NCBI GenBank assembly: GCA_963665665.1
Contig: OY762428.1
Location: forward strand, 3,013,200 to 3,077,199
DNA: 64,000 nucleotides
Direction of reading: 5' to 3'
DNA from: Candidatus Kapaibacterium sp.
GTDB lineage: Bacteria; Bacteroidota; Ignavibacteria; Kapaibacteriales; UBA2268
Position 1 is the first letter of the stretch, and the number at the start of each line of letters is the position of its first letter. The notes beneath the pieces are model-generated. The model had not been told where the DNA came from. It saw only the letters and a list, made by a program, of their open reading frames with translations, and did not search any database. Of the stretch, positions 21,573 to 51,482 are shown in pieces. The position numbers and the translations under genes were made by a program.

Positions 21573-22457
21573 TCAATCAAGTAAATTTCTCAACGCTTCT
21601 TTCAGGCCGGGATATTCAAATTCAAAGCCGTATTGATTCAGTTTTTCCGGTATGGCTTTTTGTCCTTCAATTACTATTGTAGCAGACTCCCCGAGTAATA
21701 ATTTTAAGACAAATTCCGGAACAGGGAAGAGGTTGGGCCTTCCTAAAACTTCAGCCAGCGTCCGGGAGAATATTTTCATATTTTCAGGGTTAGGGGAGCA
21801 GGCATTGTAAACACCTCTGAAATCCGAATTTTCAATTGCAAAGATCATACTTTTTATCAAATCGCTGATATGAATCCAGGAAATGAATTGCCTTCCGCTT
21901 CCAAGTGGCCCGCCTATAAAGAATTTATATGGCAAAAGCATTTTTTCCAAAGCGCCGCCTGTTTGGGAAAGAACCATTCCTATACGGGGCAGTATTACCC
22001 TGGTTGATTCTCTTGCCAGCAGTGCTGCTTTTTCCCATTCGGCAGTCAGTTCGGCAAGGAATCCACGGCCCGGAGCTGAAGATTCGTCTTTATTTTCAGT
22101 TGAATTTCCGTAATATCCCACAGCCGAGGCATTCAGAAAAAATTCAGGTTTGTTTTCGCATCTATTAATCGCTTCTGAAATTTCACCGGTGAAATCCACC
22201 CTGCTTGAAGTCAGAATTTTCTTATAACTATCAGTCCATTTGCTTCCTGCTATCGAGGCTCCGGCAAGATTAGCAATTCCGTGAACACCGGAATGAATTA
22301 ATTCCAGGGCAGCAGGTTTATCAATTGTTTCAGCACAGTTTTCTAATTTTTTTCCGGGGTTTCTACTTACCCCAATAATATCGTAGTTTTTATTCAACTC
22401 ATTTGTTAAGGCTGAACCTATCATCCCGCCGGCGCCAAATACTACAATTTTTTTCAT
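21573..22457 (-). CDS. TIGR01777-type (YfcH-like) NAD-dependent epimerase/dehydratase family protein with C-terminal DUF1731
   Basis: N-terminal Rossmann VFGAGGMIGSAL; about 295 aa; C-terminal region typical of the YfcH family. Confidence 0.65.
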   Translation of the reverse strand: MKKIVVFGAGGMIGSALTNELNKNYDIIGVSRNPGKKLENCAETIDKPAALELIHSGVHGIANLAGASIAGSKWTDSYKKILTSSRVDFTGEISEAINRCENKPEFFLNASAVGYYGNSTENKDESSAPGRGFLAELTAEWEKAALLARESTRVILPRIGMVLSQTGGALEKMLLPYKFFIGGPLGSGRQFISWIHISDLIKSMIFAIENSDFRGVYNACSPNPENMKIFSRTLAEVLGRPNLFPVPEFVLKLLLGESATIVIEGQKAIPEKLNQYGFEFEYPGLKEALRNLLD

Positions 22458-29145: not shown

Positions 29146-30009
29146 TTATCCTAACTCAAAACTTGTTACGCCAAAAACCTCGTTTATTCGAATATCAGGC
29201 TCGAAATGTGAATACATACGTGCGGTGCCAAATACTTTCTTCATATTATATTTTTTGGCCAAAGATACAGCCTGGTGATTTTTATCAGGTACATCTAAGA
29301 AAACCGGAGTATTAGCAGCATGAGTACACAAAGCCCTGAAAATTGTTTCCGCAGTTGTAGCATCATTGGCAAATAATGGCCCTATCTTGTTGCCGATACC
29401 GCAAGTTCTTATTGCCCCGTATCCCATGATATATCCATTGTCGATCATAGCATAGCCTCTAAGGTTGGGCATATTCAACCATTCCTGCAGAAAAGTCTCC
29501 CTTCTTGTGGGAAAATGTAAGGTATCATATTCAAGTATTTTGTAAAAATCAACTCTTTTCAGGTTTGTCAGATTTTCATTAACCTCAAAAGCATCAGAAT
29601 TTGGAGTAAACTCATATCTGAGATTACTGTAAGCATATTTAAAACCCAGACGGGCATAGTTATCCTGTCTGTCGAAAACGCCATCCAGTCCGGTGTTTAT
29701 CCCTTCAAGATATTTTAATGAAGCCATAGATACCATAACGCCGGCAGCGCTGCCCCTGTAGTCAGGCCTGACGATCAGAAATCCTGTAAATCCAAATTCC
29801 TCGTTATATTTAATCGCAGAAATACAAGCAACAAGTATTTCGTCGTGTTCAACTGCAAAATAACCATCCGGATCTGTTATCCAGAAAGGAGCTTCGTCGA
29901 AAAGTCCGGGATTCCAGCCTTCTTTTGCTGCCCATTCAATTGCTTGTGGAAACTCATCCCTTCTCATTTTTCTTACTTTGAAACCGTGTGTATTATCAAT
30001 TTCCGGCAT
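29146..30009 (-). CDS. GNAT-family N-acetyltransferase (two-domain)
   Basis: N-terminal acetyltransferase-like fold (motif A-like FGFTGFLIVRPDYRG); 287 aa; no other catalytic signature. Confidence 0.5.
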   Translation of the reverse strand: MPEIDNTHGFKVRKMRRDEFPQAIEWAAKEGWNPGLFDEAPFWITDPDGYFAVEHDEILVACISAIKYNEEFGFTGFLIVRPDYRGSAAGVMVSMASLKYLEGINTGLDGVFDRQDNYARLGFKYAYSNLRYEFTPNSDAFEVNENLTNLKRVDFYKILEYDTLHFPTRRETFLQEWLNMPNLRGYAMIDNGYIMGYGAIRTCGIGNKIGPLFANDATTAETIFRALCTHAANTPVFLDVPDKNHQAVSLAKKYNMKKVFGTARMYSHFEPDIRINEVFGVTSFELG

Positions 30010-30039: not shown

Positions 30040-30297
30040 TTAAGTTGCCCCGTTTCCTAAAGAACAAGGAGTGTTAACTGATACTCCTGCAGAACATGCG
30101 GCAATAGTTGTATATTTTGCGTTTCCGTCATTAAAGATTTGATCAACATTTGTAACTCAGGAACCGAAGTTGCAATAAGCAGATGCATTATTTCCACCTG
30201 CACATTTGTTTCCGATTTATGCTGCTTCGGACCCATTAACACATAATTGCCCGGAATTTTCATTAAGTACTCTGATCATTAATTTTCTGTACTTCAT
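30040..30297 (-). pseudogene. Frameshifted orphan paralog of the RiPP precursor peptide family (MKYRKLMIRVLNENSGQLCVNGSEAA / ..CAGGNNASAYCNFGS / ..CSAGVSVNTPCSLGNGAT)
   Basis: Strong SD (aaaggagataga) before the ATG at 30297. The leader resembles the precursors at 42839, 44828 and 49557. C-x-x-G motifs continue in two other frames, so at least two frameshifts. Confidence 0.55.
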
Positions 30298-33900: not shown

Positions 33901-36501
33901 ATGCAGGCACCGGGCGGCGGACTTTCCTTCTATCCTGACAGGGCAGAAACAGTTGTAATCAAGAACAACGTTATCCGCAACTTAAATCCTGAAAATGCAG
34001 ACGTGAAACGCTGCGGTATCCAGCTTTCAACACAGCGTGCAGGCATTGCAGACGAATACATGAATATACTTACACCTGCAAGGAAAGATTATCTTTCACG
34101 CAACGACATAATAGCAAACAATACTATCATCATCACAGATGACGCTGTTGACAACGTAGGCGCAACAGCAGGTATCATGCTTCAGCAGGTAGACGGCGCA
34201 GTTCTCAAGAACAATGCAATCGCCTTTGAAGACGAAGAATTTGCAGACAATGCATACACAACAACAGCAATCCTGCTCCAGAGCGAATGGCCTGAATGGG
34301 GTGCAGTAACATCCGACAGGAACGCCTTCGACATGGGCAATGCCAATGCAGACCTGATCCGCTTCATCCACATGGACGAAGACCAGAACGTAATAGAATA
34401 CGGCCAGACAGGTGAATTTGCAAACATAGCACAGTGGCAGGTATGGACAAAACAGGATGAGAACTCCGTAGTAGGCGAGTTCATAGGCGACCTTGACTAT
34501 ACAGGCAACTATCCCTACCAGCTTCGCGTTGTATCGGATCCTTATCCTCTTGGATGTATCCTTAACAACCGCGGCGGCGAAGTAACAGAAGTAGAATATG
34601 ACATCGACGGCAACCTTCGCGGAGCAGCAGGCCAGCGTTACGACATCGGCGCCTTTGAATTCTCAGGCCGCATGTATGTAAGTGACGTTGAAATGCTTAA
34701 CGTACCGACACCGGGCGCATACAGGGCCGGCATGGGTACATTCAGCGATGCAGAATACATAATGACAGAAGCCCCGACAAACATCGTGGCAAGCCTGAGG
34801 AATAACGGAACACTTCAGCAGTCAAACATCAATGTATATGCAAAGATCTATCGCGAACAGCCTGACGGATCATTCTCTGATACAGTAGAAATAGAAACAA
34901 CAGTAAAAACAAGCATTCCAACAACAGAATCAGTTAACGTTGACTTCCTTCTTGATGACCAGGACGGCGTAGACTTCTATCCTCAGTCATATTCAGAACT
35001 TGGCTTCTACAATGTACCTGATCATTTTGCAGGTATGGAATCCAATGTAACACCACGCTACAGGATAGTAATCTCTGTAGAATCAGACCAGTATAACTCT
35101 AATAATGTTATCGACAAAGTTGTACGTTTCTATGTTAAACGTTCATCACTCGGCCTTCTGGCATCAGCCAGGGATATTGCCACAGAAATCTACTGGGGCG
35201 AACCGACAACAGACGAGATAGCCGGTAAGCTGAACCTTGACAGCCTTCGTGAAGGCCTCCGCAAAGTCGGCTGGGTATCAGACCTTGGCGAAGGACAGTA
35301 TGATATAGACCTGTTCAACAGGCTCGGCTGGGAACCCAGGTCAGTAAACTACACAATGTACAAAACACTTCTCTGGTCAGACGGTGATGAAAACACAATG
35401 AGCAGATACGAGAAGATGGACATTGAAAGCTTCCTTGAAGGCGGCATGCAGAATGATAAGAAAAACCTTGTAATCGGTTCACAGGAACTTGTACGCCAGC
35501 TTGGAGGCAACGCATCCTCACTTGATTATGATCCTGACTTCCTTGATGAAGTATTCAGGGCCGAATACGTAACACCGGGCAACCCGATGGGCGCCGGCGT
35601 TAGCAACAGCGGCAATACTGCAATCGGTATCTCGGTAGGAACAAACCTTGAAAATGCTATCGTGGCTACAAGCTATGAATTTGCAGAAGATGAAGATCCT
35701 TACTGCTCACTGATGAAAGTAACACAAAACGGTGAAGGCCTTGCAAGGCCGGCATATTACTATACAACACATACAGCCACACCTTCGGACAGCACACTCG
35801 GCGTGGCAGTAACATCCCTAAGCAAGAACATCGTGACACTTGGCGTTGACTGGCGTCACTGGGCAGACATGGAAGACGTTCTTCGCCAGGTACTTGACTT
35901 CCTGGATCAGAACGGCGGCTCGGTAGTACCGGTAGAACTTACAAGCTTCGATGCCATAGCAGCAGGCCAGAGGGTTGACCTAAGCTGGGAAACAGCAAGT
36001 GAATACAAATCCTCACACTTCGAGATAGAAAAAGCAGAAGTAAGCCAGGCAGGCATGGGTTCATTCATGCAGATCGGACGTATGAAAGCAGCCGGAACAA
36101 GCAGCTATGCCACACAGTACGGCCCTGTAGTTGACTATGATGTAAACTATGGCAATACTTACGCATACCGCCTGAAAATGGTTGACATTGACGGAAGCTA
36201 CGACTACAGCGATGAAGAAGTAGTAACAATCGGTGGAAATGAAATGATCTCTCTCGGCCAGGCATATCCGAACCCGAGTAAAGAATCAGCTAAGTTCGAA
36301 CTTACAACCGGCAACGATGTAAATGTAAGCATCGATCTTTATGACATGAGCGGCAAGCTTGTACGCAACGTACTCAGCGAAACAACAAGCGGCACAGTAA
36401 CAGTTGAAGTGGATACCCGCGACCTTACAAGCGGCAGCTACACACTTGTTCTTCGCAGCGGCTCAACAATCATCAACAGGACAGTACGCGTTGTTAAGTA
36501 A
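30964..36501 (+). CDS. Giant (1845 aa) secreted right-handed beta-helix protein with C-terminal T9SS sorting domain
   Basis: Signal peptide. Iterated NN.I.NN.I.G beta-helix repeats (NNVIENNEITG, KNNRIYEING, KNNVIRN, ANNTIIITDD). C-terminal approx 80-aa Por_Secre_tail-like domain (YPNPS...VLRSGSTIINRTVRVVK). Confidence 0.6.
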   Translation: MVSTKFLRSLMAIAIFAVIAISGAKAQLLTDYTVSEYDGVYTPISGIGAGNGDDRSYRIDLPFIFNFDEQEITWVQVGTNGWMSLNKSYGTWYPASPTTSTNTIGFYSADLYTVGMIEYEVQGSAPNRVMVIQWRNQNNYSPRVHLCDWQIKLYETTGRFDIIWGSPSAAMGDRTGGFFVTGGSTTRYINIQPGNPSTFYYSNVNPNTTQWMRNPYADNIHVGKTYSFTTYPALMGAFPAQDAILRRGTIVNDENKPGVVMENNEMDGVYINYSIEGPLPASNPQYRTVYTATVEGDDTDFDVPVYNNGRTNFTHATGFVARTTPDNNGDLDLLTNELNIPGGTYKVRAQMSIPEVGFTQELADQTFIIALENDLAINRIISPKPKDEKKYPLSTGRIRVQCRVQNYGINDVTAFGAVARIYKDDEQVYEQEVEWTSTDPMSTGEYVDVNFPDYRPFETGDFDIVFEVTMVGVLDRELSNNRWPKTGDHYWFEVAHEIEAEALDIIEPAGEVFVGRPVKPLAKFQNNGVSDISDIDAEMVITNSDGDVVYRSPIIIQDIPQGRSNKVIADFDDFVPPAAGEYTACITITSDDDPVTDNNSICEDFSVVEALSGIYTIGTLNEGNVRNFLTFERALDQLYRRGMTGPVTFELTDAVYNIGSLDYTNQPAIDMSSTIVGLSEDQPIMFKPSRQRAVYRAGVKINMVSANGIGIYMGQNMEPSNPNAPVHIVRSSNKKNYSNFPGFVTFDGGANKAFQFSIDSDEDFRTVFYLAQGASNVTIKNCIIRGDYNTTPSFNADLPKMVFNSAQSQFLYEDDIRSAETYSAGILLRSTPPTTKETANLNALDSLFNQNNVIENNEITGFGYGIASMGMGVLFKQEANNFVKYYNMNNEYKDNVIHNVSRAAIFLGSEQNSTIKNNRIYEINGVSGMDAAGIILGGDAERDWFGYNVIDITVDGNEISEIDGDYEIRGIKVSQDPIVMQAPGGGLSFYPDRAETVVIKNNVIRNLNPENADVKRCGIQLSTQRAGIADEYMNILTPARKDYLSRNDIIANNTIIITDDAVDNVGATAGIMLQQVDGAVLKNNAIAFEDEEFADNAYTTTAILLQSEWPEWGAVTSDRNAFDMGNANADLIRFIHMDEDQNVIEYGQTGEFANIAQWQVWTKQDENSVVGEFIGDLDYTGNYPYQLRVVSDPYPLGCILNNRGGEVTEVEYDIDGNLRGAAGQRYDIGAFEFSGRMYVSDVEMLNVPTPGAYRAGMGTFSDAEYIMTEAPTNIVASLRNNGTLQQSNINVYAKIYREQPDGSFSDTVEIETTVKTSIPTTESVNVDFLLDDQDGVDFYPQSYSELGFYNVPDHFAGMESNVTPRYRIVISVESDQYNSNNVIDKVVRFYVKRSSLGLLASARDIATEIYWGEPTTDEIAGKLNLDSLREGLRKVGWVSDLGEGQYDIDLFNRLGWEPRSVNYTMYKTLLWSDGDENTMSRYEKMDIESFLEGGMQNDKKNLVIGSQELVRQLGGNASSLDYDPDFLDEVFRAEYVTPGNPMGAGVSNSGNTAIGISVGTNLENAIVATSYEFAEDEDPYCSLMKVTQNGEGLARPAYYYTTHTATPSDSTLGVAVTSLSKNIVTLGVDWRHWADMEDVLRQVLDFLDQNGGSVVPVELTSFDAIAAGQRVDLSWETASEYKSSHFEIEKAEVSQAGMGSFMQIGRMKAAGTSSYATQYGPVVDYDVNYGNTYAYRLKMVDIDGSYDYSDEEVVTIGGNEMISLGQAYPNPSKESAKFELTTGNDVNVSIDLYDMSGKLVRNVLSETTSGTVTVEVDTRDLTSGSYTLVLRSGSTIINRTVRVVK

Positions 36502-40197: not shown

Positions 40198-41697
40198 TTA
40201 ATTTTTTCTTTTATCAATGGCAAAAACTTTTTCCGTAATTCTTGATAATCTTACGAAAGGCAGGCCAATTAATAAATACACCGCAGCTATCATTATTCCG
40301 ATACCGAAGTAATCGTAGTATGTGGCAGCAAGCCTGCTGTATAGTTTTGTCAATTCAACTAAAGTTATGACGGACACAAGGGAAGAATCTTTCAACAAAG
40401 AAATAAAATCATTTGTAATTGGTGGTATAACCAGCCTGACAGCCTGCGGAAGGATAATGTGCCTGAGGGATTGATATTTTGTCATTCCAAGGGAAATAGC
40501 CGCTTCGGTTTGCCCTCTTGGTACAGAATTCAGCCCTGCACGATAATTCTCAGCCTCGTAGGCTGCATAGTTCAGCCCAAGCCCGATAACTGCCGCCATA
40601 AATGGAGATAATTTGATTCCTATTGTAGGGAGTGCGTAAAATATAAATATCAATTGAATCAGAAGCGGGGTTCCCCTGATAATTTCGATATAGCTAACAG
40701 CAAGCCAGGAGAAAGGAGCCGGGGCATATACACGGGTTAATGCAAGGAACAGTCCGAATAGTATAGCAAGGATCATGGCAAAAATCGAAATCCCGAGTGT
40801 CATCAATGCAGCTTCCCCGATCAAAGGAAGAAAGCCAATGTATTGATGCAATTTTACACTGAAATTTACTTCGTTTCCCTGTGATGCAACAAACCTGTCA
40901 AATTCTGTAGGTGAAATATCAACTTCATCATGATCGTTGAAAAATAATTTCATCTTATAATTCCACAGGTTCCATTTGCCGTAGATTTCCCTTAGCTGTC
41001 CGCTGGCTGCAAGTTCATATATGGCTTTGTTTACTTTGTTAAGTAGAACTGTGTCTTCCTTTCGAAGTGCAATCCCATATTCTACATCACCAACGGGCGG
41101 CCCTACAAGTTCAAATTCAGGATTCCAGGAGCAATAATAAAGTGCTATGGGAGCATCAACAAGAGCTATGTTTATTCTGCCGTTAATCATATCGGTGAAG
41201 GCATTCACTTCGCCTTCATAGGTAAGAACATCAATATCACCTTCATCAAGAAGTATTCTTTCGGCAAGTGAATTTTTTAGGCATCCCACGGTTTGGCCAT
41301 TAAGGTCATCGAGGGAATTTATTCCCTGTGTCCCCCTGACAACAACGATTTGCTCGTATGTTTTGTAGTAGGGTATCGAAAAACTTACTACTTTTTCTCT
41401 GTCGCCCGTTATTTCCAATCCGTTCATGGCAGCATCGTAATTCCCGCTTTGCAATCCCGGAATTAGTCCGTCCCACTGATTTTGGATAAATACAGCTTTC
41501 ATACCCATTTGCGCGGCAATAGCATTAGCAATGTCAACTTCAAAACCAATATTCTTAGATAATATCGAAGGGTCCTGAAAAATATAAGGTGCGTTCCCTT
41601 CTGCGTCGGCAGCCCAGCGGAACTCAGGCAACTCTTGTGATTTTAATGAAGAAATTGCAAAAAGTGTCAGGAATAATATTTTCAGGATTGAATTCAT
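40198..41697 (-). CDS. Amino-acid ABC transporter: fused periplasmic substrate-binding domain plus permease
   Basis: N-terminal SBP_bac_3-like domain with signal peptide. C-terminal polar amino-acid permease domain containing the EAA-like block ...GMTKYQSLRHIILPQA. Confidence 0.75.
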   Translation of the reverse strand: MNSILKILFLTLFAISSLKSQELPEFRWAADAEGNAPYIFQDPSILSKNIGFEVDIANAIAAQMGMKAVFIQNQWDGLIPGLQSGNYDAAMNGLEITGDREKVVSFSIPYYKTYEQIVVVRGTQGINSLDDLNGQTVGCLKNSLAERILLDEGDIDVLTYEGEVNAFTDMINGRINIALVDAPIALYYCSWNPEFELVGPPVGDVEYGIALRKEDTVLLNKVNKAIYELAASGQLREIYGKWNLWNYKMKLFFNDHDEVDISPTEFDRFVASQGNEVNFSVKLHQYIGFLPLIGEAALMTLGISIFAMILAILFGLFLALTRVYAPAPFSWLAVSYIEIIRGTPLLIQLIFIFYALPTIGIKLSPFMAAVIGLGLNYAAYEAENYRAGLNSVPRGQTEAAISLGMTKYQSLRHIILPQAVRLVIPPITNDFISLLKDSSLVSVITLVELTKLYSRLAATYYDYFGIGIMIAAVYLLIGLPFVRLSRITEKVFAIDKRKN

Positions 41698-41698
41698 A

Positions 41699-42556
41699 TT
41701 AAATGTCCACTCGTATGTTCAGATAATCCCTTGTTCTTTTGTCACGAGGATTCGAGAAAATGGTTTCGGCGCTTCCTGTTTCAATAATCTGTCCGCTTTC
41801 CATATATGCTACTCTGTCCGATATGTTTTTTGCAAAATCAATAGCATGAGTTACGATCACTTGTGTCATTCCTTCTTCATGAAGGTTTTTCATTACTTCT
41901 GTAAGCTCTCCTATCAGTTCGGGGTCAAGGGCTGATGTTGGCTCATCGTAAAGCATTACCATGGGGTTCATTGCAAGTGCCCTTGCAATAGCAACTCTTT
42001 GTGCCTGTCCGCCTGATATCTCTGTGGGGTAACGGTCGGCAAAGCGTTCCATACCAACTTTTCTTAAAAGGTCGAAAGCATTATCGCTGGCATCCTTTTT
42101 ATTTTCTCCCTTCACAATAAGCGGCGCTACCCGTACATTTTCAAGAACTGACAAATGAGGAAAAAGATTTAATCCCTGGAACAGCATTCCCACCCGCGAC
42201 CTAACCAAACATGCTTTCTCGTCGAGTTCAGAATGCCTTCTGCTGCTCAGCTTTTTGTCAGGAATAACATAAGCTATTTTATTCATTATTTCCCTGATCA
42301 TGTTATCCTGTTTCTTTTTTTCATCACATTTATCCCTGTCCAGTGTGATGCCGTCAATCTCTATACTTCCTTTGTCAGGTATTTCCAGGCAGTTCATGCA
42401 CCTGAGCAAAGTGGTTTTGCCGCAGCCGCTTCTTCCTATAATTGATAATAATTCGCCTTTTTTTATTTCCAGTTCAAGGCCTTTTAAAATATGATTATCA
42501 TTAAAATATTTATGAAGGCTGGTGATTTTTATTAAATTTTCTGAAATAAAAGCCAT
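41699..42556 (-). CDS. Amino-acid ABC transporter ATP-binding protein (GlnQ/ArtP-like)
   Basis: Walker A GRSGCGKTT, LFPHLSVLENV, signature ISGGQAQRVAIARAL, Walker B LYDEPTSALD. Confidence 0.85.
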   Translation of the reverse strand: MAFISENLIKITSLHKYFNDNHILKGLELEIKKGELLSIIGRSGCGKTTLLRCMNCLEIPDKGSIEIDGITLDRDKCDEKKKQDNMIREIMNKIAYVIPDKKLSSRRHSELDEKACLVRSRVGMLFQGLNLFPHLSVLENVRVAPLIVKGENKKDASDNAFDLLRKVGMERFADRYPTEISGGQAQRVAIARALAMNPMVMLYDEPTSALDPELIGELTEVMKNLHEEGMTQVIVTHAIDFAKNISDRVAYMESGQIIETGSAETIFSNPRDKRTRDYLNIRVDI

Positions 42557-42838: not shown

Positions 42839-43072
42839 ATGAGTTTTAAATACAAAAAACCAGAATTGAAAGTATTAAATGATGATTCGATGTTATTTTG
42901 TAATAACGGAACATCGGCTCAAGCTGTCGGGCCGTCATATCAATGTATATCAGGAACTTCAGTCAATCCGGTACTTTGCACCGACGGTAGCACAAATGAC
43001 GGGGTTTTTGTTCAGTGCGACAGCGGTGGATCTGCATTTGGTTTTGCCTGCGCAGTCGGCGGAACAGATTAA
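42839..43072 (+). CDS. RiPP precursor peptide 1 (77 aa; Cys/Gly/Ser/Thr-rich core with five C-x-x-G motifs)
   Basis: MSFKYKKPELKVLNDDSMLFCNNGTSAQA leader-like N-terminus, then a core of CNNGT/CISGT/CTDGS/CDSGG/CAVGG. Followed by a hairpin terminator, and lies next to a PqqD-like gene and two rSAM-SPASM genes. Confidence 0.65.
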   Translation: MSFKYKKPELKVLNDDSMLFCNNGTSAQAVGPSYQCISGTSVNPVLCTDGSTNDGVFVQCDSGGSAFGFACAVGGTD

Positions 43073-43167
43073 TCAGCTTTGATCATTGTAATAAATATTG
43101 ACCAATGTTATAAAATATTTTGTGTATAGATAATAAAACAGCGTGAAAAAAGTTTGAAATTAAGAAT

Positions 43168-43206
43168 AAAGCCGTATTTGAATGTTACGGCTATTTTTTT
43201 TTTTAT
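43168..43206 (+). terminator. Rho-independent terminator/attenuator immediately after precursor peptide 1
   Basis: aaagccgtatttgaatgttacggctattttttttttt: stem agccgta/tacggct plus an 11-nt T-tract. Confidence 0.7.
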
Positions 43207-43260
43207 TAAATTATATGTTTAAAAAGTAGTAATGTATTTACAACAATAAATGAGGCAGAA

Positions 43261-43545
43261 ATGGCAAACAACCCTATTGCAAACCCGATGATAGTTCACA
43301 GGGTGGAGGATGATGACTGGGCGGTTCTATTTGATCCCGACGCTAACGAAACTTACGCTCTCGATCCTGTTAGTTCTTTTGTGTGGCAATTATTGGACGG
43401 TAAGCACAGCAAGGAAGAAATTCTGGCAAAACTGGAAAAAGAATGTGAGGATGGAATTCCCGAAGAAGCTGCAACAGACCTGGATGAGTTTCTTACAGAA
43501 CTGGAAGCAAAAGCTCTTGTTGGATACGAGCAGGCAATTGGTTAA
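43261..43545 (+). CDS. PqqD-family peptide chaperone (RiPP recognition element, stand-alone)
   Basis: 94 aa; block ETYALDPVSSFVWQLLDGKHSKEEILAKL...ATDLDEFLTELEAKAL matches the PqqD pattern (..ylLN.tg..iW.lldG..t..ei...l.....v.......dv..fl..L...gl). Confidence 0.75.
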   Translation: MANNPIANPMIVHRVEDDDWAVLFDPDANETYALDPVSSFVWQLLDGKHSKEEILAKLEKECEDGIPEEAATDLDEFLTELEAKALVGYEQAIG

Positions 43546-43547
43546 TT

Positions 43548-44681
43548 ATGAAAATTGAACGCACTCCTAAAAGCCTTGACCTTGAAATTACAAGCAAGTG
43601 CAACCTAAGGTGTTCTTATTGCTCTCACTTCAATAGCGAAGGTGATACCGATACCGATTTAAGCACTGATGAATGGCTGCAATTCTTCGAAGAGCTGAAA
43701 GAATGCAACGTTATGGATGTTACTCTTTCTGGTGGCGAACCATTCATGAGAAAAGATATCCGTATCCTGCTTGACGGGATAATAAAAAATAGAATGAGGT
43801 TCGGATTTCTTACGAATGGTATTCTTTTTAATGATGACCTGGCTGAATATATTAAAACAACAGGCCGATGCAACAGTATCCAGGTTTCAATCGACGGCCC
43901 CGGCCCTGAAATTCATGATGCTTCGCGTGGTAAGGGAAGCTTTGAAAAAGCAATCGCCGGGCTTAAAACGATAATGAGACACGGCCTTCCTGCCACGGTA
44001 CGTGTTACGATAAACAAGCACAACTATAAAAAACTTCCTGAAATAGCTGAAATGTTGCTTGAAGAAGTAGGGCTTCATTCATTTTCAACAAACGCAGCTT
44101 CTCATCTCGGGCTTTGCCGTACTAATAAAGACGATGTTCAGCTTGGTGTGGAAGAATATACTGAATCAATGCAGACGATATTTACACTTGTTGAAAAGTA
44201 TGGCAACAGGATAAATGCCCAGGCAGGCCCTCTTGCATCAGGCAAGCAATGGATGGAAATGGAAAAAGCCCGGCAGAATAATTTAGATAATCTTCCCGGA
44301 TGCGGATATCTTACAAGTTGTGGCGGGATTTTCGCAAAAATGGCAATTCAGGCTGACGGATCAATGGTACCGTGTTCGCAGTTGCCGCACATGAAACTTG
44401 GTAAGGTCAACGTGGACAGCCTTGCAGATGTATGGCTGAATCATCCTGAGCTTAAACGCCTGCGTGAAAGAAGAGATATTCCGCTTGGTACATTTGACTC
44501 ATGCAAGGGCTGTTCGTATATACCTTATTGCAGGGGCGGATGCCCGGCACTGGCATATACCCTGAACGGAGATGAGAATGTTCCTTCTCCGGAATCATGC
44601 TACAGGAATTTTCTTGCTGCGGGTGGAAGATTGCCGGTTTTAGATGATAACGAGCCATTTTTTAGTCCGGGATGTTGCTGA
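43548..44681 (+). CDS. Radical SAM / SPASM-domain peptide-modifying enzyme 1
   Basis: CNLRCSYC (CxxxCxxC) near N-terminus. C-terminal auxiliary-cluster Cys array CGYLTSCGG...C...CKGCSYIPYCRGGCPA typical of SPASM. 3 nt after the PqqD-like gene. Confidence 0.85.
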   Translation: MKIERTPKSLDLEITSKCNLRCSYCSHFNSEGDTDTDLSTDEWLQFFEELKECNVMDVTLSGGEPFMRKDIRILLDGIIKNRMRFGFLTNGILFNDDLAEYIKTTGRCNSIQVSIDGPGPEIHDASRGKGSFEKAIAGLKTIMRHGLPATVRVTINKHNYKKLPEIAEMLLEEVGLHSFSTNAASHLGLCRTNKDDVQLGVEEYTESMQTIFTLVEKYGNRINAQAGPLASGKQWMEMEKARQNNLDNLPGCGYLTSCGGIFAKMAIQADGSMVPCSQLPHMKLGKVNVDSLADVWLNHPELKRLRERRDIPLGTFDSCKGCSYIPYCRGGCPALAYTLNGDENVPSPESCYRNFLAAGGRLPVLDDNEPFFSPGCC

Positions 44682-44827
44682 TGAAAATAAAATTTAGCAT
44701 CACTATCTTAAATATATACCAAACATAAAATACGTTTCCTGGATAGTTTGGTTTAACAGTGGATTAAATATAAATATTGTTTTTTGAATTTGTTCATTAC
44801 AGTAAAAATTTTGAAAATTGGATTATT

Positions 44828-45103
44828 ATGAAAAAGAAATTTAGCTATACCAGACCATCGCTATCATCATTGTCAGATGAAATATCTCAATTCTGTAATG
44901 TAGGAACAGGAGCAACTTTAGCTGATACTCCTGCTATTCAGTGTACTGTTGGTGGGGATGCACAGCTGATTTGTGTTGCCGGTACCGGTTTTTCCAGTAC
45001 GTATCCACATTGCGCTAATGGCCCTGCTGATTCAAAACTTGCATGTTCAACAGGATCAGGGGACACTAATCCCAGCTGTAATGTTGGCAATTCACCAGTT
45101 TAA
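44828..45103 (+). CDS. RiPP precursor peptide 2 (91 aa; six C-x-x-G motifs)
   Basis: MKKKFSYTRPSLSSLSDEISQF leader, then CNVGTG/CTVGGD/CVAGTG/CANGPA/CSTGSG/CNVGNS. Sits between the two rSAM genes. Confidence 0.65.
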   Translation: MKKKFSYTRPSLSSLSDEISQFCNVGTGATLADTPAIQCTVGGDAQLICVAGTGFSSTYPHCANGPADSKLACSTGSGDTNPSCNVGNSPV

Positions 45104-45130
45104 TATATTAACAATAAATACTTAATAATT

Positions 45131-46261
45131 ATGAGCGAAGAAAAAAATACAGAATTTAAAGTACCGGAATGCGGTTATCCGCTGAGCCAGATATATTTTT
45201 ACATGACTGAAGGATGCAACCTGAAATGCCGTCACTGCTGGATAGAACCGAAATTCCAGGCTTCCGGCAATAGTAAATGGCCCTCTATTGAGTTTGACCT
45301 TTTCAAGGATATATGCTATCAGGGCAGGGAACTTGGAATGAACTCAGTTAAACTAACCGGCGGGGAGCCACTGATAAATCCTGATATTGACAAAATACTT
45401 GATTTCATTTATGAGGAGAAGTTCAGGCTGACAATTGAAACTAACGGCATCGAACTGACACCTGAAATTTGTGAAAAGATTGCCCGGTGTGAAGGCACTT
45501 TTGTTTCAATCAGCCTTGATGGCTCAACAGCAGAAGAACACGAATGGGTTCGCGGTGTTCCGGGTTGTTTCGAAGCAGCATTGCAAGGCGCACGGAATCT
45601 TGTAGCCGTGGGAATAAGGCCGCAGTTTATAATGTCGATAATGAAAAGGAATGCACACCAGATAGAAGATATTATTGAACTTGCCCGGAAAGAAAACGCC
45701 GAGTCGGTTAAATACAACCTGGTAACACCTACTGCACGTGGGGAGCAAATGCACGAGGCTGGCGAAACTCTGTCGATTGAAGAATTGATCCGTATTGGTA
45801 AATGGGTGGAAGATGAATTGCAGCCAAAGTACAAAGATGTCAGGCTTCACTATTCTCATCCGGTTGCTTTCAAGCCTTTTGGCAAAATGTTTGAAAGACC
45901 ATTGGGACGTTGCGGTATATTCGGTATTATCGGAGTGCTCGGAAATGGTAAATATGCTCTTTGCGGTATCGGTGAAACTGTCCCTGAACTTGTTTTCGGC
46001 GACGCGAGAAAAGATAAACTCGCAGATGTTTGGAATAATAACCAGGTACTTAATGATATTCGTAAAGGCTTACCAAAAGATTTGAATGGTATTTGCGGGG
46101 ATTGTCTCGTTAAAAACAAATGCCTTGGTTCCTGTGTAGCCATGAATTATTATCGTCATCACGATCTGTTTGCTCCTTTCTGGTATTGCGAGGAAGCACT
46201 TAAAGCCGGACTTTTCCCCAAAACCAGGATCAAGCCGGGATCGCCATTTGAAAAGGTATAA
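45131..46261 (+). CDS. Radical SAM / SPASM-domain peptide-modifying enzyme 2
   Basis: CNLKCRHC motif. C-terminal CGIFG...C....CGDCLVKNKCLGSCVA SPASM-like cysteine array. Confidence 0.85.
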   Translation: MSEEKNTEFKVPECGYPLSQIYFYMTEGCNLKCRHCWIEPKFQASGNSKWPSIEFDLFKDICYQGRELGMNSVKLTGGEPLINPDIDKILDFIYEEKFRLTIETNGIELTPEICEKIARCEGTFVSISLDGSTAEEHEWVRGVPGCFEAALQGARNLVAVGIRPQFIMSIMKRNAHQIEDIIELARKENAESVKYNLVTPTARGEQMHEAGETLSIEELIRIGKWVEDELQPKYKDVRLHYSHPVAFKPFGKMFERPLGRCGIFGIIGVLGNGKYALCGIGETVPELVFGDARKDKLADVWNNNQVLNDIRKGLPKDLNGICGDCLVKNKCLGSCVAMNYYRHHDLFAPFWYCEEALKAGLFPKTRIKPGSPFEKV

Positions 46262-46273
46262 AACAAATACTAA

Positions 46274-48082
46274 ATGCGTTTATGGTATAAATATCTGAAG
46301 CAGGGGCTTTCCCGTAAGCTGCCTGTCGATAAGTTCAATGAAGAATCGAACTACGGCAGGCTCAGGGATAATATTAAACTATTATTTCCTCCGATAAAAA
46401 AACACTGGAAGGCCGGGCTGATATCAATGTTTGTTCTGGTTCTGTCATCAGTCCTGACTTATCCCCTGCCAATGATAAACAAATATTTTATCGATGACGT
46501 TTTGCTGAAAAAGAGGATTGACCTTGTTGTTCCGGTAGTATTACTATTAACGGGAATTGGCCTTGCTTCGTATCTGACGGGCGTGTTGAAAGGCTTTTAT
46601 AATCAGCGATTCACACAGGAAGTGATACTCGATCTGCAAAAGACAATGATCGATAAGGTTTTGTCACTCCCAAAATTCTTCTTTGATAAAAATCGATCCG
46701 GCTATCTTATGTCAAGGATATCCGGAGATGTTCACGGTGTAAACTGGTTTCTTTCCGGCCCTATGGTTCAAATGTTTCTCCAGGCTATGAAATTCATTGG
46801 TGGTGTTTATTTCCTGATATTCCTGGAATGGCGTCTGGCAATTCCGGTTATTCTTACCTTGCCGATACCATTTTTCGCAATGCGTTATTTTGCTAAGCGG
46901 TCTTATATTATGAGCCATTATACCAGCGAAATGAATGCAAAAACAAACGCCAGCCTGCATGAAACTGTTAATACTGTTTCTCTTATTAAATCTTTTGCCA
47001 ACGAGAAAAAAGCATCAAAGTCCCTATTCAGGATGTTGAGAAAAAAAGTTAACATCGGGTATGAACAAAACAGTATGAATTCTCTTAGCAGTTTGATCAA
47101 CCAGCTAATGCCACAGGTTGCCAAATTTGCTGTTATGCTTTTTGGCGCTTACTGGGTAATCAGCGGCGAGTGGCAATTGGGATCTCTTATCGCTTTCCAA
47201 TCATACTTATCCTACGTGTACGGGCCGGTAAATCAGCTTTCTTCCAGTATGAACCAATTGCAGACAGCCCGGGCAACAATGGACAGGGTTGCTACTATTC
47301 TCGGAATGGATTCCGAAGAGAATACTGACAGCGGAGATGAAATTACGAAACTGACCGGAAGCATAGAATTTGATAATGTAAGCTTCGGGTATGATAAGAA
47401 AAAACCTGTTTTATCTAATCTTTCCTTTAATATAAAAGCAGGGGAACAATGGGCTGTGATCGGCCCAAGCGGTATTGGTAAAACGACGCTTATCAGCCTG
47501 CTTTTAAAATTTTATTCCACTGATTCCGGAGATATTCTATTTGATGATAAGTCCTGTAAAGATATCAATGTGCGTTCTTTAAGAAGAAGGCTTGGCTATG
47601 TGGCACAATCAACGAGCCTGCAAACAGGAACAATTCTGAAAAATCTGAAATACGGAAATCCCGGAGCAAGTGTAGAAGATATAGTTAAAGCAGCAAAGAT
47701 TGCCGGAATTCATGAATTTATTGAAGAACTGCCCGAAAAATATAATACCCATATAGAAGAAGGCGGCGCTAACCTTTCCGAAGGCCAGAAACAAAGGCTT
47801 TCTATTGCAAGAGCTCTTGTTCTGAATCCTGATATTTATATACTGGATGAACCAACTGCTTCAGTAGATAACCTGACTGAACAGTCAATTTACAAAGCTC
47901 TTCCTGAAACAATAAAAAATAAGACAACAATCACTATAGCACACAGGTTAAATACTATTAAATCAGCAGAAAAAATATTATTTTTGAGAAAGAATAAAAT
48001 TCCTCTTATCGGTTCACATAATGAATTGAAAGGCGATGATGATTACATGGAATTTTTCGAAACTATAAATAATTGTAACTGA
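46274..48082 (+). CDS. ABC exporter, fused permease-ATPase (no C39 peptidase domain)
   Basis: Six predicted TM helices, then Walker A GPSGIGKTT, signature LSEGQKQRLSIARAL, Walker B ILDEPTASVD. Confidence 0.85.
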   Translation: MRLWYKYLKQGLSRKLPVDKFNEESNYGRLRDNIKLLFPPIKKHWKAGLISMFVLVLSSVLTYPLPMINKYFIDDVLLKKRIDLVVPVVLLLTGIGLASYLTGVLKGFYNQRFTQEVILDLQKTMIDKVLSLPKFFFDKNRSGYLMSRISGDVHGVNWFLSGPMVQMFLQAMKFIGGVYFLIFLEWRLAIPVILTLPIPFFAMRYFAKRSYIMSHYTSEMNAKTNASLHETVNTVSLIKSFANEKKASKSLFRMLRKKVNIGYEQNSMNSLSSLINQLMPQVAKFAVMLFGAYWVISGEWQLGSLIAFQSYLSYVYGPVNQLSSSMNQLQTARATMDRVATILGMDSEENTDSGDEITKLTGSIEFDNVSFGYDKKKPVLSNLSFNIKAGEQWAVIGPSGIGKTTLISLLLKFYSTDSGDILFDDKSCKDINVRSLRRRLGYVAQSTSLQTGTILKNLKYGNPGASVEDIVKAAKIAGIHEFIEELPEKYNTHIEEGGANLSEGQKQRLSIARALVLNPDIYILDEPTASVDNLTEQSIYKALPETIKNKTTITIAHRLNTIKSAEKILFLRKNKIPLIGSHNELKGDDDYMEFFETINNCN

Positions 48083-48085
48083 CAG

Positions 48086-48961
48086 ATGCAGCAGGCAAAA
48101 CAAATAGAACAATTTTATCTGAAACTTTCGGATGGCAGCAAATGGGGATTCAATTCAGCTCCTGAATTGAAAGAATGGTTTAGCATATTTGCCAGAATAA
48201 TGTCTTTGAAAAAAGATAACTCTGATGTGGATTATTTGTTTAATATCCGGCCCAAAAACGGAAGGGAAATTCCTGCCGGAGTTGATGAAAGCTGGGATTC
48301 TTTCAGGCAAAGCGGGGCATATACTATATGGAGCAAAAAAGGGGAAAAACAGTTTTTAATTGAAATAAACAAAGAGTTTATCGACCACCCCGAGATTAGA
48401 GTGATAAATATGTGGTCAACATTGAAGGCTCTATATAAATTTTATGCTGAGAACGGTGGAGGCCCGGTTCATAGCGGAATGGCAGCCCTGAATGGCAAAG
48501 CTATACTGATAGCTGCCCCGGGGGGTACCGGGAAATCAACATCCATACGCAGGCTGCCGGATTATTGGAAAAAAATGTGCGATGACACAACCCTGATAGT
48601 AAAAAAAGATGATAATTTCTTTGTTCATCCCATGCCTACATGGAGTGACCATCTATGGGAGCATAATTTTACTACTTTCGATACTTCAAGGGGATTCCCA
48701 TTAGCAGCTGTTTTCTTTCTGAAGCAGTCCGGCACTGACAAAGTTACCCCGATTTCCAGGCCTGAAGGCATTCAGTTGCTTTTAAGTTCAGTTAAACAGG
48801 TTTTTCAAACTTATGTTGATAAGTTGAAGGATAATGAAAAGTCTGAAATGGCTATGAAACTGTTTGATAACACCTGTAATATTGTTGGAAAAACACCATG
48901 CTACAGGCTTGAAGCTACATTGAACGGGGATTTCTGGGAAGAAATTGAAAAGGTATTATAG
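48086..48961 (+). CDS. HPr-kinase/phosphorylase C-terminal-domain-like P-loop protein
   Basis: HSGMAALNGKAILIAAPGGTGKSTSIRRL....DDTTLIV parallels the HprK P-loop region (H...G.GVLI.G.SG.GKSE.AL.L...G..LV.DD). Confidence 0.55.
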   Translation: MQQAKQIEQFYLKLSDGSKWGFNSAPELKEWFSIFARIMSLKKDNSDVDYLFNIRPKNGREIPAGVDESWDSFRQSGAYTIWSKKGEKQFLIEINKEFIDHPEIRVINMWSTLKALYKFYAENGGGPVHSGMAALNGKAILIAAPGGTGKSTSIRRLPDYWKKMCDDTTLIVKKDDNFFVHPMPTWSDHLWEHNFTTFDTSRGFPLAAVFFLKQSGTDKVTPISRPEGIQLLLSSVKQVFQTYVDKLKDNEKSEMAMKLFDNTCNIVGKTPCYRLEATLNGDFWEEIEKVL

Positions 48962-49560
48962 TGGAAAAGCACAAGCCGCAATATAATACAAGTGTCGGGC
49001 CAAGCATGTACCCGACAATGAAAAGCGGCGATGCATATATCCTTAAAGAAATATCTTCTATTGATGAAATATGCCGGGGAGATGTAATTGTTTTTCCCCA
49101 CCCTGACGAACCAATTAATGTTGTTCACAGAATTATTAGGATTTATCCCGAAGGTTTTCAAACCAGGGGAGATAATAATAACCGTAAAGATCCCTATATT
49201 GTGAAAAAGGATGATATTATCGGTGTGGTGGGCAAGGTTATCAGGAAAAATAAAAGATATACTATTCATGGCGGAAATGCGGGATTATTCATCCACAGGA
49301 TGGCTTGGGCCAGGAAATATTCCCGGCCCTATATTGTAAAGCCACTGAAGTTTTTATTGAATTTGCTGATCAGATCAAAAATATTCTTCATTTTCGGAAA
49401 TTTCTTTTCAACTTCAATCACAAAAATTAACCGAATGGGTTCCGAGCAATTTATCTTAAGTGTAAATAAAAAACCGGTTGGAAAAAAAGAATCAAAGGAA
49501 TCTGCGTGGATAATTAGTTTCCCTTATAGTTTGTTTATTAATCCGAAGAAATTACCATGA
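48961..49560 (+). CDS. S26 signal-peptidase-like serine peptidase (SipW/ER-type Ser-His), candidate leader peptidase
   Basis: GPSMYPTMKSGD (SM.PT catalytic Ser box), GDVIVF, and VVHRIIRI (His box of SipW/archaeal-type S26). Stop overlaps start of precursor 3 (ATGA). Confidence 0.6.
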   Translation: MEKHKPQYNTSVGPSMYPTMKSGDAYILKEISSIDEICRGDVIVFPHPDEPINVVHRIIRIYPEGFQTRGDNNNRKDPYIVKKDDIIGVVGKVIRKNKRYTIHGGNAGLFIHRMAWARKYSRPYIVKPLKFLLNLLIRSKIFFIFGNFFSTSITKINRMGSEQFILSVNKKPVGKKESKESAWIISFPYSLFINPKKLP

Positions 49561-49781
49561 AATACCGAAAACCAAAAATATACAGACTTTTCCCATCGAA
49601 AATAGACATAAGCGCCTGTATGGACGGTGAGCAGGCTTCGAGCATGGCCTGCGTATCCGGCCCGGAGGCATCCAGCGGGTGTAAAACCGGGGCTGCTGCC
49701 GGTACGGCATGTAAGGATGGTTCCGCTGCCGGATTCAGTTGCAACAGCGGTGCAGGATTCGAGGAATGGGAAAGGAAGTAA
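49557..49781 (+). CDS. RiPP precursor peptide 3 (74 aa; five C-x-x-G motifs)
   Basis: MKYRKPKIYRLFPSKIDISA leader, then CMDGE/CVSGP/CKTGA/CKDGS/CNSGA at about 10-residue spacing. Start codon overlaps the S26 stop, indicating translational coupling. Confidence 0.65.
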   Translation: MKYRKPKIYRLFPSKIDISACMDGEQASSMACVSGPEASSGCKTGAAAGTACKDGSAAGFSCNSGAGFEEWERK

Positions 49782-49835: not shown

Positions 49836-50615
49836 ATGAAAATATCAATATTAACCGAAAATACAGCAGCGCCTTATTTCCTTGCGGAATTTGGTTTTTC
49901 ATGCTTTATAGAAACAAACGGGAATAATTTTCTTTTTGATTTAGGCGCCACGGACATTTATCTGAAAAATGCCGAAAAACTTGGCATTGATATAGATAAT
50001 TGCAATAATGTTATTCTCAGCCATGGCCACTGGGATCATGGAAACGGCCTTAAATACATTAAGGGAAAAAATCTATTATGTCATCCGGGGGCTTTTCGTA
50101 AAAGATACCACAAAGGTGATGATAATAATATCGGCCTTGAAATGACTAAAGAAGAAATTGAGACAAATTTCTGCCTGACAAGCTCGGCGAAACCATATTA
50201 TATTGATGAAAATATAATTTTCCTTGGAGAAATTCCCAGGCTGAATGATTTTGAATCAAAGGAATCAGATTTTATACTCTCCGACGGAAGCGAGGATTTT
50301 GTAAGTGATGATACCGCCATGGCCATTGTTGAAGACGGCAGGCTAATCATCATTTCCGGGTGCGCCCATTCCGGAATTTGTAATATTATAGAATATGCGC
50401 GTAATATTTCCGGCATTTCGGACGTGAAAGCTGTGCTGGGCGGCTTCCATTTAAAAAATGAAAACCGTCAGTTGGATGAAACAATTAAATATTTTAAAAA
50501 ATTAAATGCAAAGCAGCTTTATCCCTGCCACTGTACTCAATTGCCTGCTATGGCAGCTTTTTATAACAATTTTAAAATTAACAGGATAATGGCAGGAAAC
50601 ACATTGGAAATTTAG
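49836..50615 (+). CDS. MBL-fold metallo-hydrolase
   Basis: LSHGHWDHGNGL (HxHxDH) plus downstream His/Asp; 259 aa. Confidence 0.75.
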   Translation: MKISILTENTAAPYFLAEFGFSCFIETNGNNFLFDLGATDIYLKNAEKLGIDIDNCNNVILSHGHWDHGNGLKYIKGKNLLCHPGAFRKRYHKGDDNNIGLEMTKEEIETNFCLTSSAKPYYIDENIIFLGEIPRLNDFESKESDFILSDGSEDFVSDDTAMAIVEDGRLIIISGCAHSGICNIIEYARNISGISDVKAVLGGFHLKNENRQLDETIKYFKKLNAKQLYPCHCTQLPAMAAFYNNFKINRIMAGNTLEI

Positions 50616-50624
50616 GAAAATAAA

Positions 50625-51482
50625 ATGAAAACATATATTGATTGTATTCCATGCTTTATGAACCAGGCGCTAAGGGCCGGAAGAATATCCACAAGCGATG
50701 ATATAATACTTAAAAAAATAATGGATAACGTAGGCGGGAAGCTGAAAGATGTATCCCTTACCGAAGTACCGCCCCGTTCGGCAATGATCATATACGATGA
50801 AATATTTCGCCAGACGGGAATAGAAGACCCTTACAAAAAAATCAAAAAGGAAAGTATAGACCTTGCTAAAAGTATTCTGGGGCAAATCAGAAATATGGTG
50901 GAATCTGCCCCCGACCCGTTACTTGCTGCCGTAAAAGCAGCAATTGCAGGTAATATTATTGATTTTGGTGCCTGCGAGGATTTTGATATTAAAAAGGATG
51001 TAAAGGCATCTATGGATATGGACTTATCTATAAACGATTATGAGGTTTTCAAAGAAAAAATAAATTATGCACGTACAGTCCTTTACCTTGGGGATAATGC
51101 CGGGGAAACTGTTTTTGACAGGTTGCTAATCGAGAATATTGACGCAAGGGTGGTTTATGCTGTCAGGGAGAAACCTATTATCAATGATGCAGTGATAGAA
51201 GATGCAGTTGATTCCGGCCTGGCCGATATATGCGAGATAATTTCTTCAGGCAGTACTGCTCCTGCAACTATTCTTGAAGAATGTAATGAACGGTTTTTAG
51301 GTCTTTATCACGGCGGAGCTGATATTATCATCAGCAAAGGGCAGGGAAATTACGAGAGTTTATCTGATAGTAACGAAAATATTTTCTTCCTTCTTAAAAC
51401 TAAATGCAGCGTTATTGCCCGCGACCTTGATACCGAAACAGGTGCACTTGTATTGAAAGCCGGTAAAAATTATGATTTGTAA
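50625..51482 (+). CDS. DUF89 (ARMT1-like/damage-control phosphatase family) protein
   Basis: N-terminal YIDCIPCF..QAL and overall length/pattern resemble PF01937 members; weakly supported. Confidence 0.45.
   Translation: MKTYIDCIPCFMNQALRAGRISTSDDIILKKIMDNVGGKLKDVSLTEVPPRSAMIIYDEIFRQTGIEDPYKKIKKESIDLAKSILGQIRNMVESAPDPLLAAVKAAIAGNIIDFGACEDFDIKKDVKASMDMDLSINDYEVFKEKINYARTVLYLGDNAGETVFDRLLIENIDARVVYAVREKPIINDAVIEDAVDSGLADICEIISSGSTAPATILEECNERFLGLYHGGADIIISKGQGNYESLSDSNENIFFLLKTKCSVIARDLDTETGALVLKAGKNYDL

Follow-up and report, generated by a model that had tools for sequence, protein, structure and literature searches.

The SynChlorMet (SCM) cassette, a gene set for a peptide that is made on ribosomes and altered after translation (RiPP), has been catalogued in TIGRFAMs/NCBIfam for more than ten years, with models for a precursor peptide ScmA (TIGR04252) and for the proteins ScmC (TIGR04249), ScmD (TIGR04248), ScmE (TIGR04250) and ScmF (TIGR04251). 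The searchable literature yielded no publication on the cassette or on the compound it makes. Among the described systems closest to it are the clusters for linear polyphosphorylated peptides (LPP) and paeninodin, whose HprK-like kinases phosphorylate Ser in the precursor peptides, the phosphate being retained (PMC13381572; PMC8498205). The motif [Y/W]xxPx[L/V/I/F/A] is bound by the discrete RiPP recognition elements (RREs) of lasso and LPP systems, and experiments have demonstrated that the SipW-like LppS acts as the leader peptidase of a RiPP (PMC13381572); according to a report of 2026, the SipW-like leader peptidase of LPP had not been described in RiPP pathways before. For iterated chemistry on Cys there is PapB, a single radical SAM enzyme which acts on six CX3D motifs in one peptide and forms six thioethers there (PMC9413430). 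Here we analyzed a stretch of 64,000 nucleotides from Candidatus Kapaibacterium sp. (assembly GCA_963665665.1, contig OY762428.1, positions 3,013,200 to 3,077,199), referred to as the window, and in it three small open reading frames (ORFs), P1, P2 and P3. A preliminary description had regarded them as RiPP precursors that have a leader in common and repeat a module, encoded beside radical SAM genes. A profile built without them, the neighbouring scmE and scmF genes and the synteny of related loci all speak for this reading, and P1-P3 very likely represent ScmA-type precursor peptides of an SCM cassette, for which we propose a maturation pathway.

P1, P2 and P3 are intact ORFs on the plus strand at the positions first described (Table 1), and they do share a leader: each begins with a short basic stretch followed by Y-x-x-P-x-[LI], all three fit the pattern [YWF]xxPx[LIVMF], and the first Cys is reached 20-22 residues from the start. 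The Gly/Ala/Ser/Thr-rich cores contain five, six and five Cys residues, which agrees with the five to six expected; P3 has five and not six (residues 21, 32, 42, 52 and 62). The recurrence of Gly at +3 of each Cys was confirmed for 16 of 16 Cys residues. In composition-preserving shuffles, made for each core separately, it was reached at every Cys by 8 (P1), 0 (P2) and 6 (P3) of 200,000 shuffled cores, and a spacing as regular as the observed one by 162, 103 and 16 of 200,000, respectively. The spacings themselves are 15/11/13/11 in P1, 16/10/13/11/11 in P2 and, almost perfectly periodic, 11/10/10/10 in P3, so that the regularity of the modules was borne out and their range has to be widened from 10-13 to 10-16 residues. 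The proposed module C-x-x-G-[TSPA] holds in its first four positions throughout; the class at +4 is found in 11 of the 16 modules, the remainder carrying G (three), N (one) or E (one). None of the three peptides has any Pfam or NCBIfam match.

For the identification of relatives, genome contigs were searched with an alignment of ScmC, which returned 80 further SCM loci; a single-sequence ScmC scan gave none. The loci derive from Lentisphaerota, Thermodesulfobacteriota, Planctomycetota, Aminicenantes, Nitrospirae, Omnitrophota, Saganbacteria, Chlorobi, Fibrobacterota, Calditrichaeota, Methanocella and others. With an iterated profile and all six-frame ORFs, about 97 homologous peptides were found in 61 of the 81 SCM loci; for 84 peptides the strand is that of ScmC. 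As the first profile included P1-P3 themselves, it was rebuilt as a leave-out profile from 72 peptides, leaving out all direct relatives of P1-P3. Of the window's 1,827 six-frame segments this profile matched only P3 (1e-13), P1 (6.9e-10) and P2 (1.4e-9), and a profile of the leader alone also placed P1-P3 first in the window. A regular-expression control found four additional ORFs among approximately 13,700, of which two are true family members. Word-indexed searches are weak for short peptides of low complexity: P2 alone retrieved only its orthologue from the close relative L001, the profile of 58 members ten matches. An exhaustive hmmsearch of 1.84 billion representatives yielded 1,376 cluster representatives; the leader was present in 60 out of 61 sampled ones, in which 96% of the Cys residues were followed by Gly(+3) and the modal spacing was 10.

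The consensus of 58 members reads KYEKPxLxxL..GxCxxGSxxxxxCxxGxxAxxxCxxGxxAxxxCxxG, with the Pro, three Cys and two Gly residues invariant; the regularity of the motif thus survives proper alignment, the check that had been suggested for it. The family leader is K-[YWF]-E-K-P-x-L-[VI]-x-L, and [YWF]xxPx[LIVMF] occurs in 90 of 94 members. The first Cys stands 17-20 residues past the leader aromatic, and the junction before it is occupied by G/A at -2 (81%) and A/G/S at -4 (70%). The most frequent Cys spacing is 10 (163 cases), followed by 11 (88) and 9 (47). Gly is found at +3 in 77-89% of the modules, and position -4 relative to every Cys holds a conserved Ala. The C-terminus lies 6-8 residues past the last Cys in 72 of 81 peptides, with G+3 kept at 89%. 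The cores are rich in Ser/Thr (21%), which are frequent at +4/+5 of Cys. Within the family, direct homologues of P3 with 46-62% identity follow the S26 gene in ten loci (L002-L008, L011, L013 and L014), and the P3 subtype is conserved across phyla. P1 and P2 make up a divergent pair, for which one clear relative exists in L011. The large Cys-repeat proteins P0107-P0109 were examined as candidates for a known Cys-rich repeat family and rejected, being perfect tandem repeats without a leader; the concern that the peptides might belong to such an unrelated family was not substantiated.

The genes around P1-P3 are arranged in the order P1-scmD-scmE-P2-scmF-ABC-scmC-S26-P3. ScmC, ScmD, ScmE and ScmF all flank the three peptides, and the synteny is kept across 81 loci. 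The canonical order is ScmD-ScmE-ScmF-peptide-ScmC-S26-(ABC) with 1 to 8 peptide copies per locus; several paralogues per cluster are common, in line with the multi-product system first suggested. Tested as an SCM cassette, the window contains ScmE, ScmF and ScmC above the curated cutoffs and a ScmD below its own.

ScmE and ScmF have the Pfam domains Radical_SAM and SPASM, and the CX3CX2C and seven-Cys SPASM motifs are kept in at least 42 of 43 ScmE and in 46 of 46 ScmF homologues. The best solved relative of ScmE is the sactionine synthase SkfB (E=3.3e-22), and the thioether synthase CteB is among the top three solved relatives of ScmF; the solved PDB relatives of the two also include PqqE, SuiB, anSME and BlsE. 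Since both proteins start directly with the radical SAM domain, there is no room for a fused RRE. ScmD additionally gave weak matches to lasso PqqD chaperones. In the alignment of ScmC, H129, GK(S)T 149-152 (GxxGxGK[ST]) and DD 166-167 are invariant. Signals for HprK were weak (TIGR04352, E=0.0022, and a faint Hpr_kinase_C match on one homologue), and the ScmC profile aligned its His, P-loop and DD motifs to those of an HPr kinase/phosphorylase of the PDB with E=0.0083. The top Foldseek matches of the AlphaFold2 model (pLDDT 94) were phosphoenolpyruvate (PEP) carboxykinases (E=5e-8). PEP carboxykinases and HprK share a common P-loop fold by established classification. The S26 protein is without an N-terminal membrane anchor, and 61 of 61 homologues carry Ser15 (in GxSMxP), His56, G70-D71 and D77. 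For the ABC exporter, TIGR00958 (369.6 bits) and the MsbA model TIGR02203 (360.6 bits) were the first and second NCBIfam matches, all matches remaining below cutoffs, and no C39 peptidase domain was found in it by the Pfam/NCBIfam scan. The same scan detected neither a lasso B2 protease or C macrolactam synthetase nor a lanthipeptide lyase/cyclase domain in any cassette protein.

Table 1. Features of the SCM locus and of the related pseudogene, in positions of the window.
Feature	Position	Strand	Assignment and evidence
P1	42839..43072	+	77 aa; ScmA-like precursor; leader of ~20 aa with YKKPEL; 5 C-x-x-G modules
Hairpin after P1	43170..43204	+	7 bp, 9-nt loop, followed by 11-T run; read from sequence
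ScmD	43261..43545	+	Discrete PqqD-family RRE; TIGR04248 85.8 bits (top match, cutoff 100); Pfam PqqD E=1e-15
ScmE	43548..44681	+	Radical SAM/SPASM; TIGR04250 546.8 bits (cutoff 400); CX3CX2C at residue 18; full SPASM Cys signature
P2	44828..45103	+	91 aa; ScmA-like precursor; YTRPSL leader; 6 C-x-x-G modules
ScmF	45131..46261	+	Second radical SAM/SPASM; TIGR04251 519.5 bits (cutoff 400); CX3CX2C at residue 29; full SPASM signature
ABC exporter	46274..48082	+	MsbA-like, fused permease and ATPase; Pfam ABC_membrane and ABC_tran only
ScmC	48086..48961	+	HprK/PEPCK-like P-loop protein, putative peptide kinase; TIGR04249 227 bits (cutoff 125)
S26	48961..49560	+	SipW/archaeal-type signal-peptidase homologue, putative leader peptidase; TIGR02228 70.7 bits (cutoff 51.85)
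P3	49557..49781	+	74 aa; ScmA-like precursor, conserved 'GPEA' subtype; YRKPKI leader; 5 C-x-x-G modules
Pseudo-copy	30040..30297	-	Orphan, pseudogenised, ScmA-like; in-frame TAA 30219-30217 and TGA 30159-30157; leader Pro lost

The precursor family is already defined as ScmA and narrowly modelled, so that the novelty implied at first does not stand. The NCBIfam model TIGR04252 ('SCM_precur_ScmA') comprises 49 positions with a cutoff of 35 bits. It matches 19 of the 58 family members at E<=1, and among 20 individually scanned peptides the cutoff is passed by a single one, from L049 (39.1 bits). Taken with the leave-out profile, this identifies P1-P3 as ScmA-type by context and transitive homology, yet they fail the curated score. 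The window accordingly holds three divergent members missed by the curated model and not a new kind of system. The family proves to be far larger and more diverse than that model, with most members 'hypothetical' or uncalled (those with a name in the databases are called 'hypothetical'), which suggests that TIGR04252 needs widening. Its anatomy can now be given: the leader carries YxxPxL, the module A-x-x-x-C-x-x-G spans 10 residues and the tail 6-8.

That P2 is a real coding gene can be deduced from the comparison with L001, which is 99.1% identical to the window. A total of 58 of the 185 differences fall in positions 44682-45500, reaching from the scmE stop codon over P2 into the first third of scmF, and P1, scmD, scmE and P3 are identical in both. 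In P2, 11 synonymous and 9 non-synonymous codon changes were counted (synonymous divergence dS 0.22; ratio of non-synonymous to synonymous divergence, dN/dS, 0.26), with all Cys and Gly(+3) kept. The tract is best explained as recombined and under purifying selection, and on this ground P2 is taken as coding. Diversifying selection as cause of the hot-spot was rejected, dS being high as well, dN/dS low and the tract spanning from the scmE stop into scmF.

For the maturation of the peptides we propose a pathway in five steps, acting on a precursor composed of a leader of about 20 residues, five to six modules, each about ten residues long (A-x-x-x-C-x-x-G-[STG]-x), with a short tail past the last Cys. 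First, the discrete PqqD-type ScmD would bind the YxxPxL leader and present the core, as suggested by the known RRE motif and by natural ScmD-precursor fusions; three family members also match weakly the lasso-leader model lasso_leader_L3. In a second step ScmE and ScmF would modify every module, the likeliest outcome by analogy being one Cys-derived thioether ring per module and hence a string of small rings. One ring per module is favoured because of the SPASM signatures, the relationship to SkfB and the precedent of PapB, and the conserved tail would fit a requirement of each Cys for a few residues downstream. This thioether step is the weakest of the pathway. A single radical SAM enzyme, as assumed in the preliminary description, does not describe the system, given that canonical cassettes with one peptide already have ScmE and ScmF, the HprK-like P-loop protein and S26. 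Third, ScmC probably phosphorylates Ser/Thr of the peptide, to judge from its fold, its motifs and the LPP/paeninodin precedent. Fourth, the S26 protein without anchor may cut off the leader, the probable site being a small-x-small sequence immediately ahead of the first Cys; its catalytic residues, LppS and the fusions point in this direction, and since the small residues at -4/-2 of the first Cys fit the -3/-1 rule, cleavage is predicted one residue before this Cys. Finally, the MsbA-like ABC transporter would export the product.

Several findings weigh against this assignment and pathway. P1-P3 gave no match to TIGR04252 even at E<=10, and ScmD stays below the TIGR04248 cutoff. The link between ScmC and HprK is weak at the sequence level (E=0.008; TM-score of ~0.45-0.5 to PEP carboxykinase). 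P1 and P2 lack the small residues of the family at -2/-4 before the first Cys. The module offers no conserved Asp/Glu/Asn/Thr as acceptor, only Gly(+3) and Ala(-4). Moreover, among the 31 ScmC loci that are well flanked (6 kb or more on each side of scmC), ten are without ScmE/F, and five of these ten still encode ScmA-like peptides. It follows that ScmC, ScmD and S26, and not the radical SAM enzymes, are most tightly associated with the peptide in the genomes, and that the Cys modules may not be defined by radical SAM chemistry.

From this observation a second explanation arises, which we regard as unlikely, if still worth serious attention: P1-P3 would be genuine SCM precursors whose periodic Cys residues are not radical SAM thioether donors and instead serve some other end, for example as targets of ScmC-type enzymes, in disulfide ladders or for the binding of metals; ScmE and ScmF would install a different change (e.g., epimerisation, C-C crosslinks or Cys oxidation) or act only in a subset of the systems. 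The loci free of radical SAM genes fit this explanation, one of them, in L014 (identical to L083), being a compact ScmC-S26~peptide-PqqD-ScmC-ABC cluster with two ScmC paralogues that is flanked by the housekeeping genes mreBCD and def/fmt. The canonical position of the peptide gene next to scmC and the module without side-chain acceptor point the same way, and SPASM enzymes catalyze many reactions, as the range of the PDB relatives illustrates. However, two thirds of the well-flanked loci have both radical SAM genes immediately upstream of the peptide, and in the remaining ones the enzymes may act in trans: one Victivallales genome carries a full cassette (L031) together with a locus of peptide and ScmC only (L056). 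Furthermore, Cys is the most conserved feature of the core, and the structures nearest to ScmE (SkfB) and among the top three for ScmF (CteB) are both thioether synthases. On balance we retain modification of the modules by ScmE and ScmF as the preferred reading.

A lanthionine-like route, in which ScmC phosphorylates Ser/Thr, elimination leads to dehydro-amino acids, Cys adds to these and the radical SAM enzymes are accessory, is very improbable. Class III/IV lanthipeptide synthetases follow such a logic of kinase and subsequent elimination, and it would suit the kinase-like ScmC as the gene most tightly tied to the peptide as well as the Ser/Thr content of the cores and its frequent placement at +4/+5 of Cys. 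Against it stand the lack of a lyase/cyclase domain in every cassette protein, the presence of S/T at +4 in less than half of the modules, with Gly, Asn and Ala often in their place, and the retention of phosphate by characterised HprK-like RiPP kinases. That the ORFs are non-functional or part of an unrelated secreted Cys-rich repeat family, with a pattern arising by compositional chance, could be argued from the missing Pfam/NCBIfam matches and from a few large period-10 Cys-repeat proteins scoring against the core profile, and is effectively refuted by the leave-out and leader-only profiles picking exactly P1-P3 in 64 kb, the synteny across many phyla, the purifying selection on P2, the few extra ORFs of the regular-expression control and the leaderless nature of the large repeats.

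A further copy of the precursor had been noted at 30040-30297 and described as a pseudogene; this could be substantiated, with the additions that it lies on the minus strand and carries two in-frame stops. Behind a Shine-Dalgarno sequence (aggag), the ATG at 30297-30295 opens a frame encoding MKYRKLMIRVLNENSGQLCVNGSEAA up to the TAA; after this the frame continues with IGNKCAGGNNASAYCNFGS to the TGA and then with ...CSAGVSVNTPCSLGNGAT to the closing TAA at 30042-30040. The leader begins with MKYRK... and has lost the otherwise invariant Pro, and five C-x-x-G modules are left in one frame. Read through, the copy matches the leave-out profile with E=1.2e-7; the plus strand of 30040-30297 shows stops only and no motif. 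It represents an orphan relic. The downstream gene at 29146-30009 (minus strand) was tried as a divergent ScmC and rejected, with a hhalign probability of 0.3; it encodes a GNAT acetyltransferase. The pseudo-copy is flanked by a sensor histidine kinase of 2,046 aa with about ten PAS domains (22454-28594, minus strand) and by a protein of 1,845 aa with a type IX secretion system (T9SS) C-terminal sorting domain (30964-36501, plus strand); the GC content is 39%, which together with the T9SS signal suggests a bacterium of the FCB group.

Around the intact genes, P1 is preceded by a ribosome binding site (aaaggga). The hairpin behind it folds as RNA with -10.5 kcal/mol (z=-2.85), 1 of 200 shuffles folding as well, and together with its T-run appears to be terminator- or attenuator-like; the consensus terminator scan passed over it because the loop exceeds 8 nt. 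The ATG of P3 overlaps the stop codon of the S26 gene (ATGA), by which P3 is translationally coupled to S26. Upstream of P1 an AT-rich spacer of 282 bp was found, which presumably holds the promoter of the cassette and from which a fused amino-acid ABC substrate-binding/permease gene and an ATPase (40198-42556, minus strand) diverge. Directly downstream of P3, a gene for an MBL-fold hydrolase (49836-50615) was considered as a cassette member and rejected, as it recurs in only one other locus, L036. It is followed by a gene for an ARMT1-like damage-control phosphatase (50625-51482), near the cluster of the putative kinase.

In other genomes, several further arrangements were observed. S26 and a P3-type precursor are fused as an ORF of 182 aa in two unrelated metagenome-assembled genomes (L013:9299-9847, 'Eubacteriales', and L014:10897-11445, identical to L083:10918-11466, Aminicenantes), and a PqqD/ScmD domain is fused to a ScmA-like precursor in P0181 (224 aa) and in L022:7857-8480, so that natural fusions link the peptide to both the RRE and the S26 peptidase. 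A nucleotidyltransferase of the NTP_transf_5 type follows the S26 gene in 32 SCM loci (e.g., L017:10837-12828 and L088:4914-6152) and is fused to S26 in L017; no homologue exists in the window. A ScmA-like subfamily with the leader 'PYEPPRIIDL' (P0121, P0144) is encoded beside recR-ybaB(-dnaX), once in L084 (2269-2577) and as a tandem pair in L085 (124-444 and 449-769). These short contigs contain no scm genes, and the peptides may be orphan precursors or part of a separate system.

With its enzyme set, the K-Y-E-K-P-x-L type of leader and its C-x-x-G modules the locus is the same as the catalogued SCM cassettes; compared with their order scmDEF-peptide-scmC-S26, the arrangement in the window is non-canonical and includes three divergent paralogues and a pseudogene. 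It offers a concrete way, open to experimental test, to what is probably a new peptide scaffold of anaerobes and uncultured phyla. Lasso peptides have the YxxPxL leader and the discrete PqqD-type RRE in common with SCM, and differ in their B2 protease and C macrolactam synthetase, which are absent from the cassette, and in an unrelated core architecture. Class III/IV lanthipeptides differ in the lyase/cyclase that accompanies their kinase and is likewise missing.

Freyrasin (PapA/PapB), the ranthipeptides and the sactipeptides (SCIFF/CteB, SkfA/SkfB, subtilosin/AlbA) resemble SCM in combining Cys-rich cores with SPASM radical SAM enzymes, and the iteration of PapB over six CX3D motifs is the closest precedent for crosslinking module by module. 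In contrast to their one radical SAM enzyme with fused RRE, SCM has two such enzymes and a discrete RRE. ScmE and ScmF are far below the cutoffs of the models of these synthase families (ScmE: PapB 101.5 vs 340, StsB 104.5 vs 625, SkfB 96.9 vs 300; ScmF: AlbA 72.5 vs 850), and the SCM module lacks their kind of conserved acceptor.

The chassis of SCM is that of the LPP/paeninodin-type lasso clusters: a PqqD-type RRE as a discrete protein, a putative kinase with weak signals for HprK, a putative leader peptidase of the SipW/archaeal type and an MsbA-like exporter, together with the [Y/W]xxPx[L/V/I] leader motif and, in the 32 loci mentioned above, the accessory NTP_transf_5. The combination of SipW-like peptidase, discrete RRE and MsbA-like exporter by which LPP is defined (PMC13381572) is present in the window. 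Unlike LPP, which has no other core-modifying enzymes, SCM has a core with periodic Cys and two radical SAM/SPASM enzymes. The extended leader of LPP, YxxPxVLxHQxIxFETxxS, is absent from P1-P3, which have only YxxPx[LI] in common with it; the nucleotidyltransferase is absent from the window and ScmC is only distantly HprK-like. SCM cassettes are also mostly found outside Bacillota, in contrast to LPP/paeninodin. In view of the loci free of radical SAM genes and of the closest partners of the peptide, the most fitting description of SCM is a chassis of the LPP kind to which two SPASM enzymes have in most cases been added. It is possible, and we suggest this tentatively and with some doubt, that the SCM products form a chemically new hybrid class of RiPPs, in which an LPP/paeninodin-type chassis and two SPASM enzymes turn the 10-residue modules into rings with an acceptor not seen before (Gly/Ala C-alpha or backbone). 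If so, the product would be a phosphorylated 'string of rings', made in three versions by the organism of the window, one of these, the P3 type, being conserved among phyla and in some cases fused with its own peptidase.

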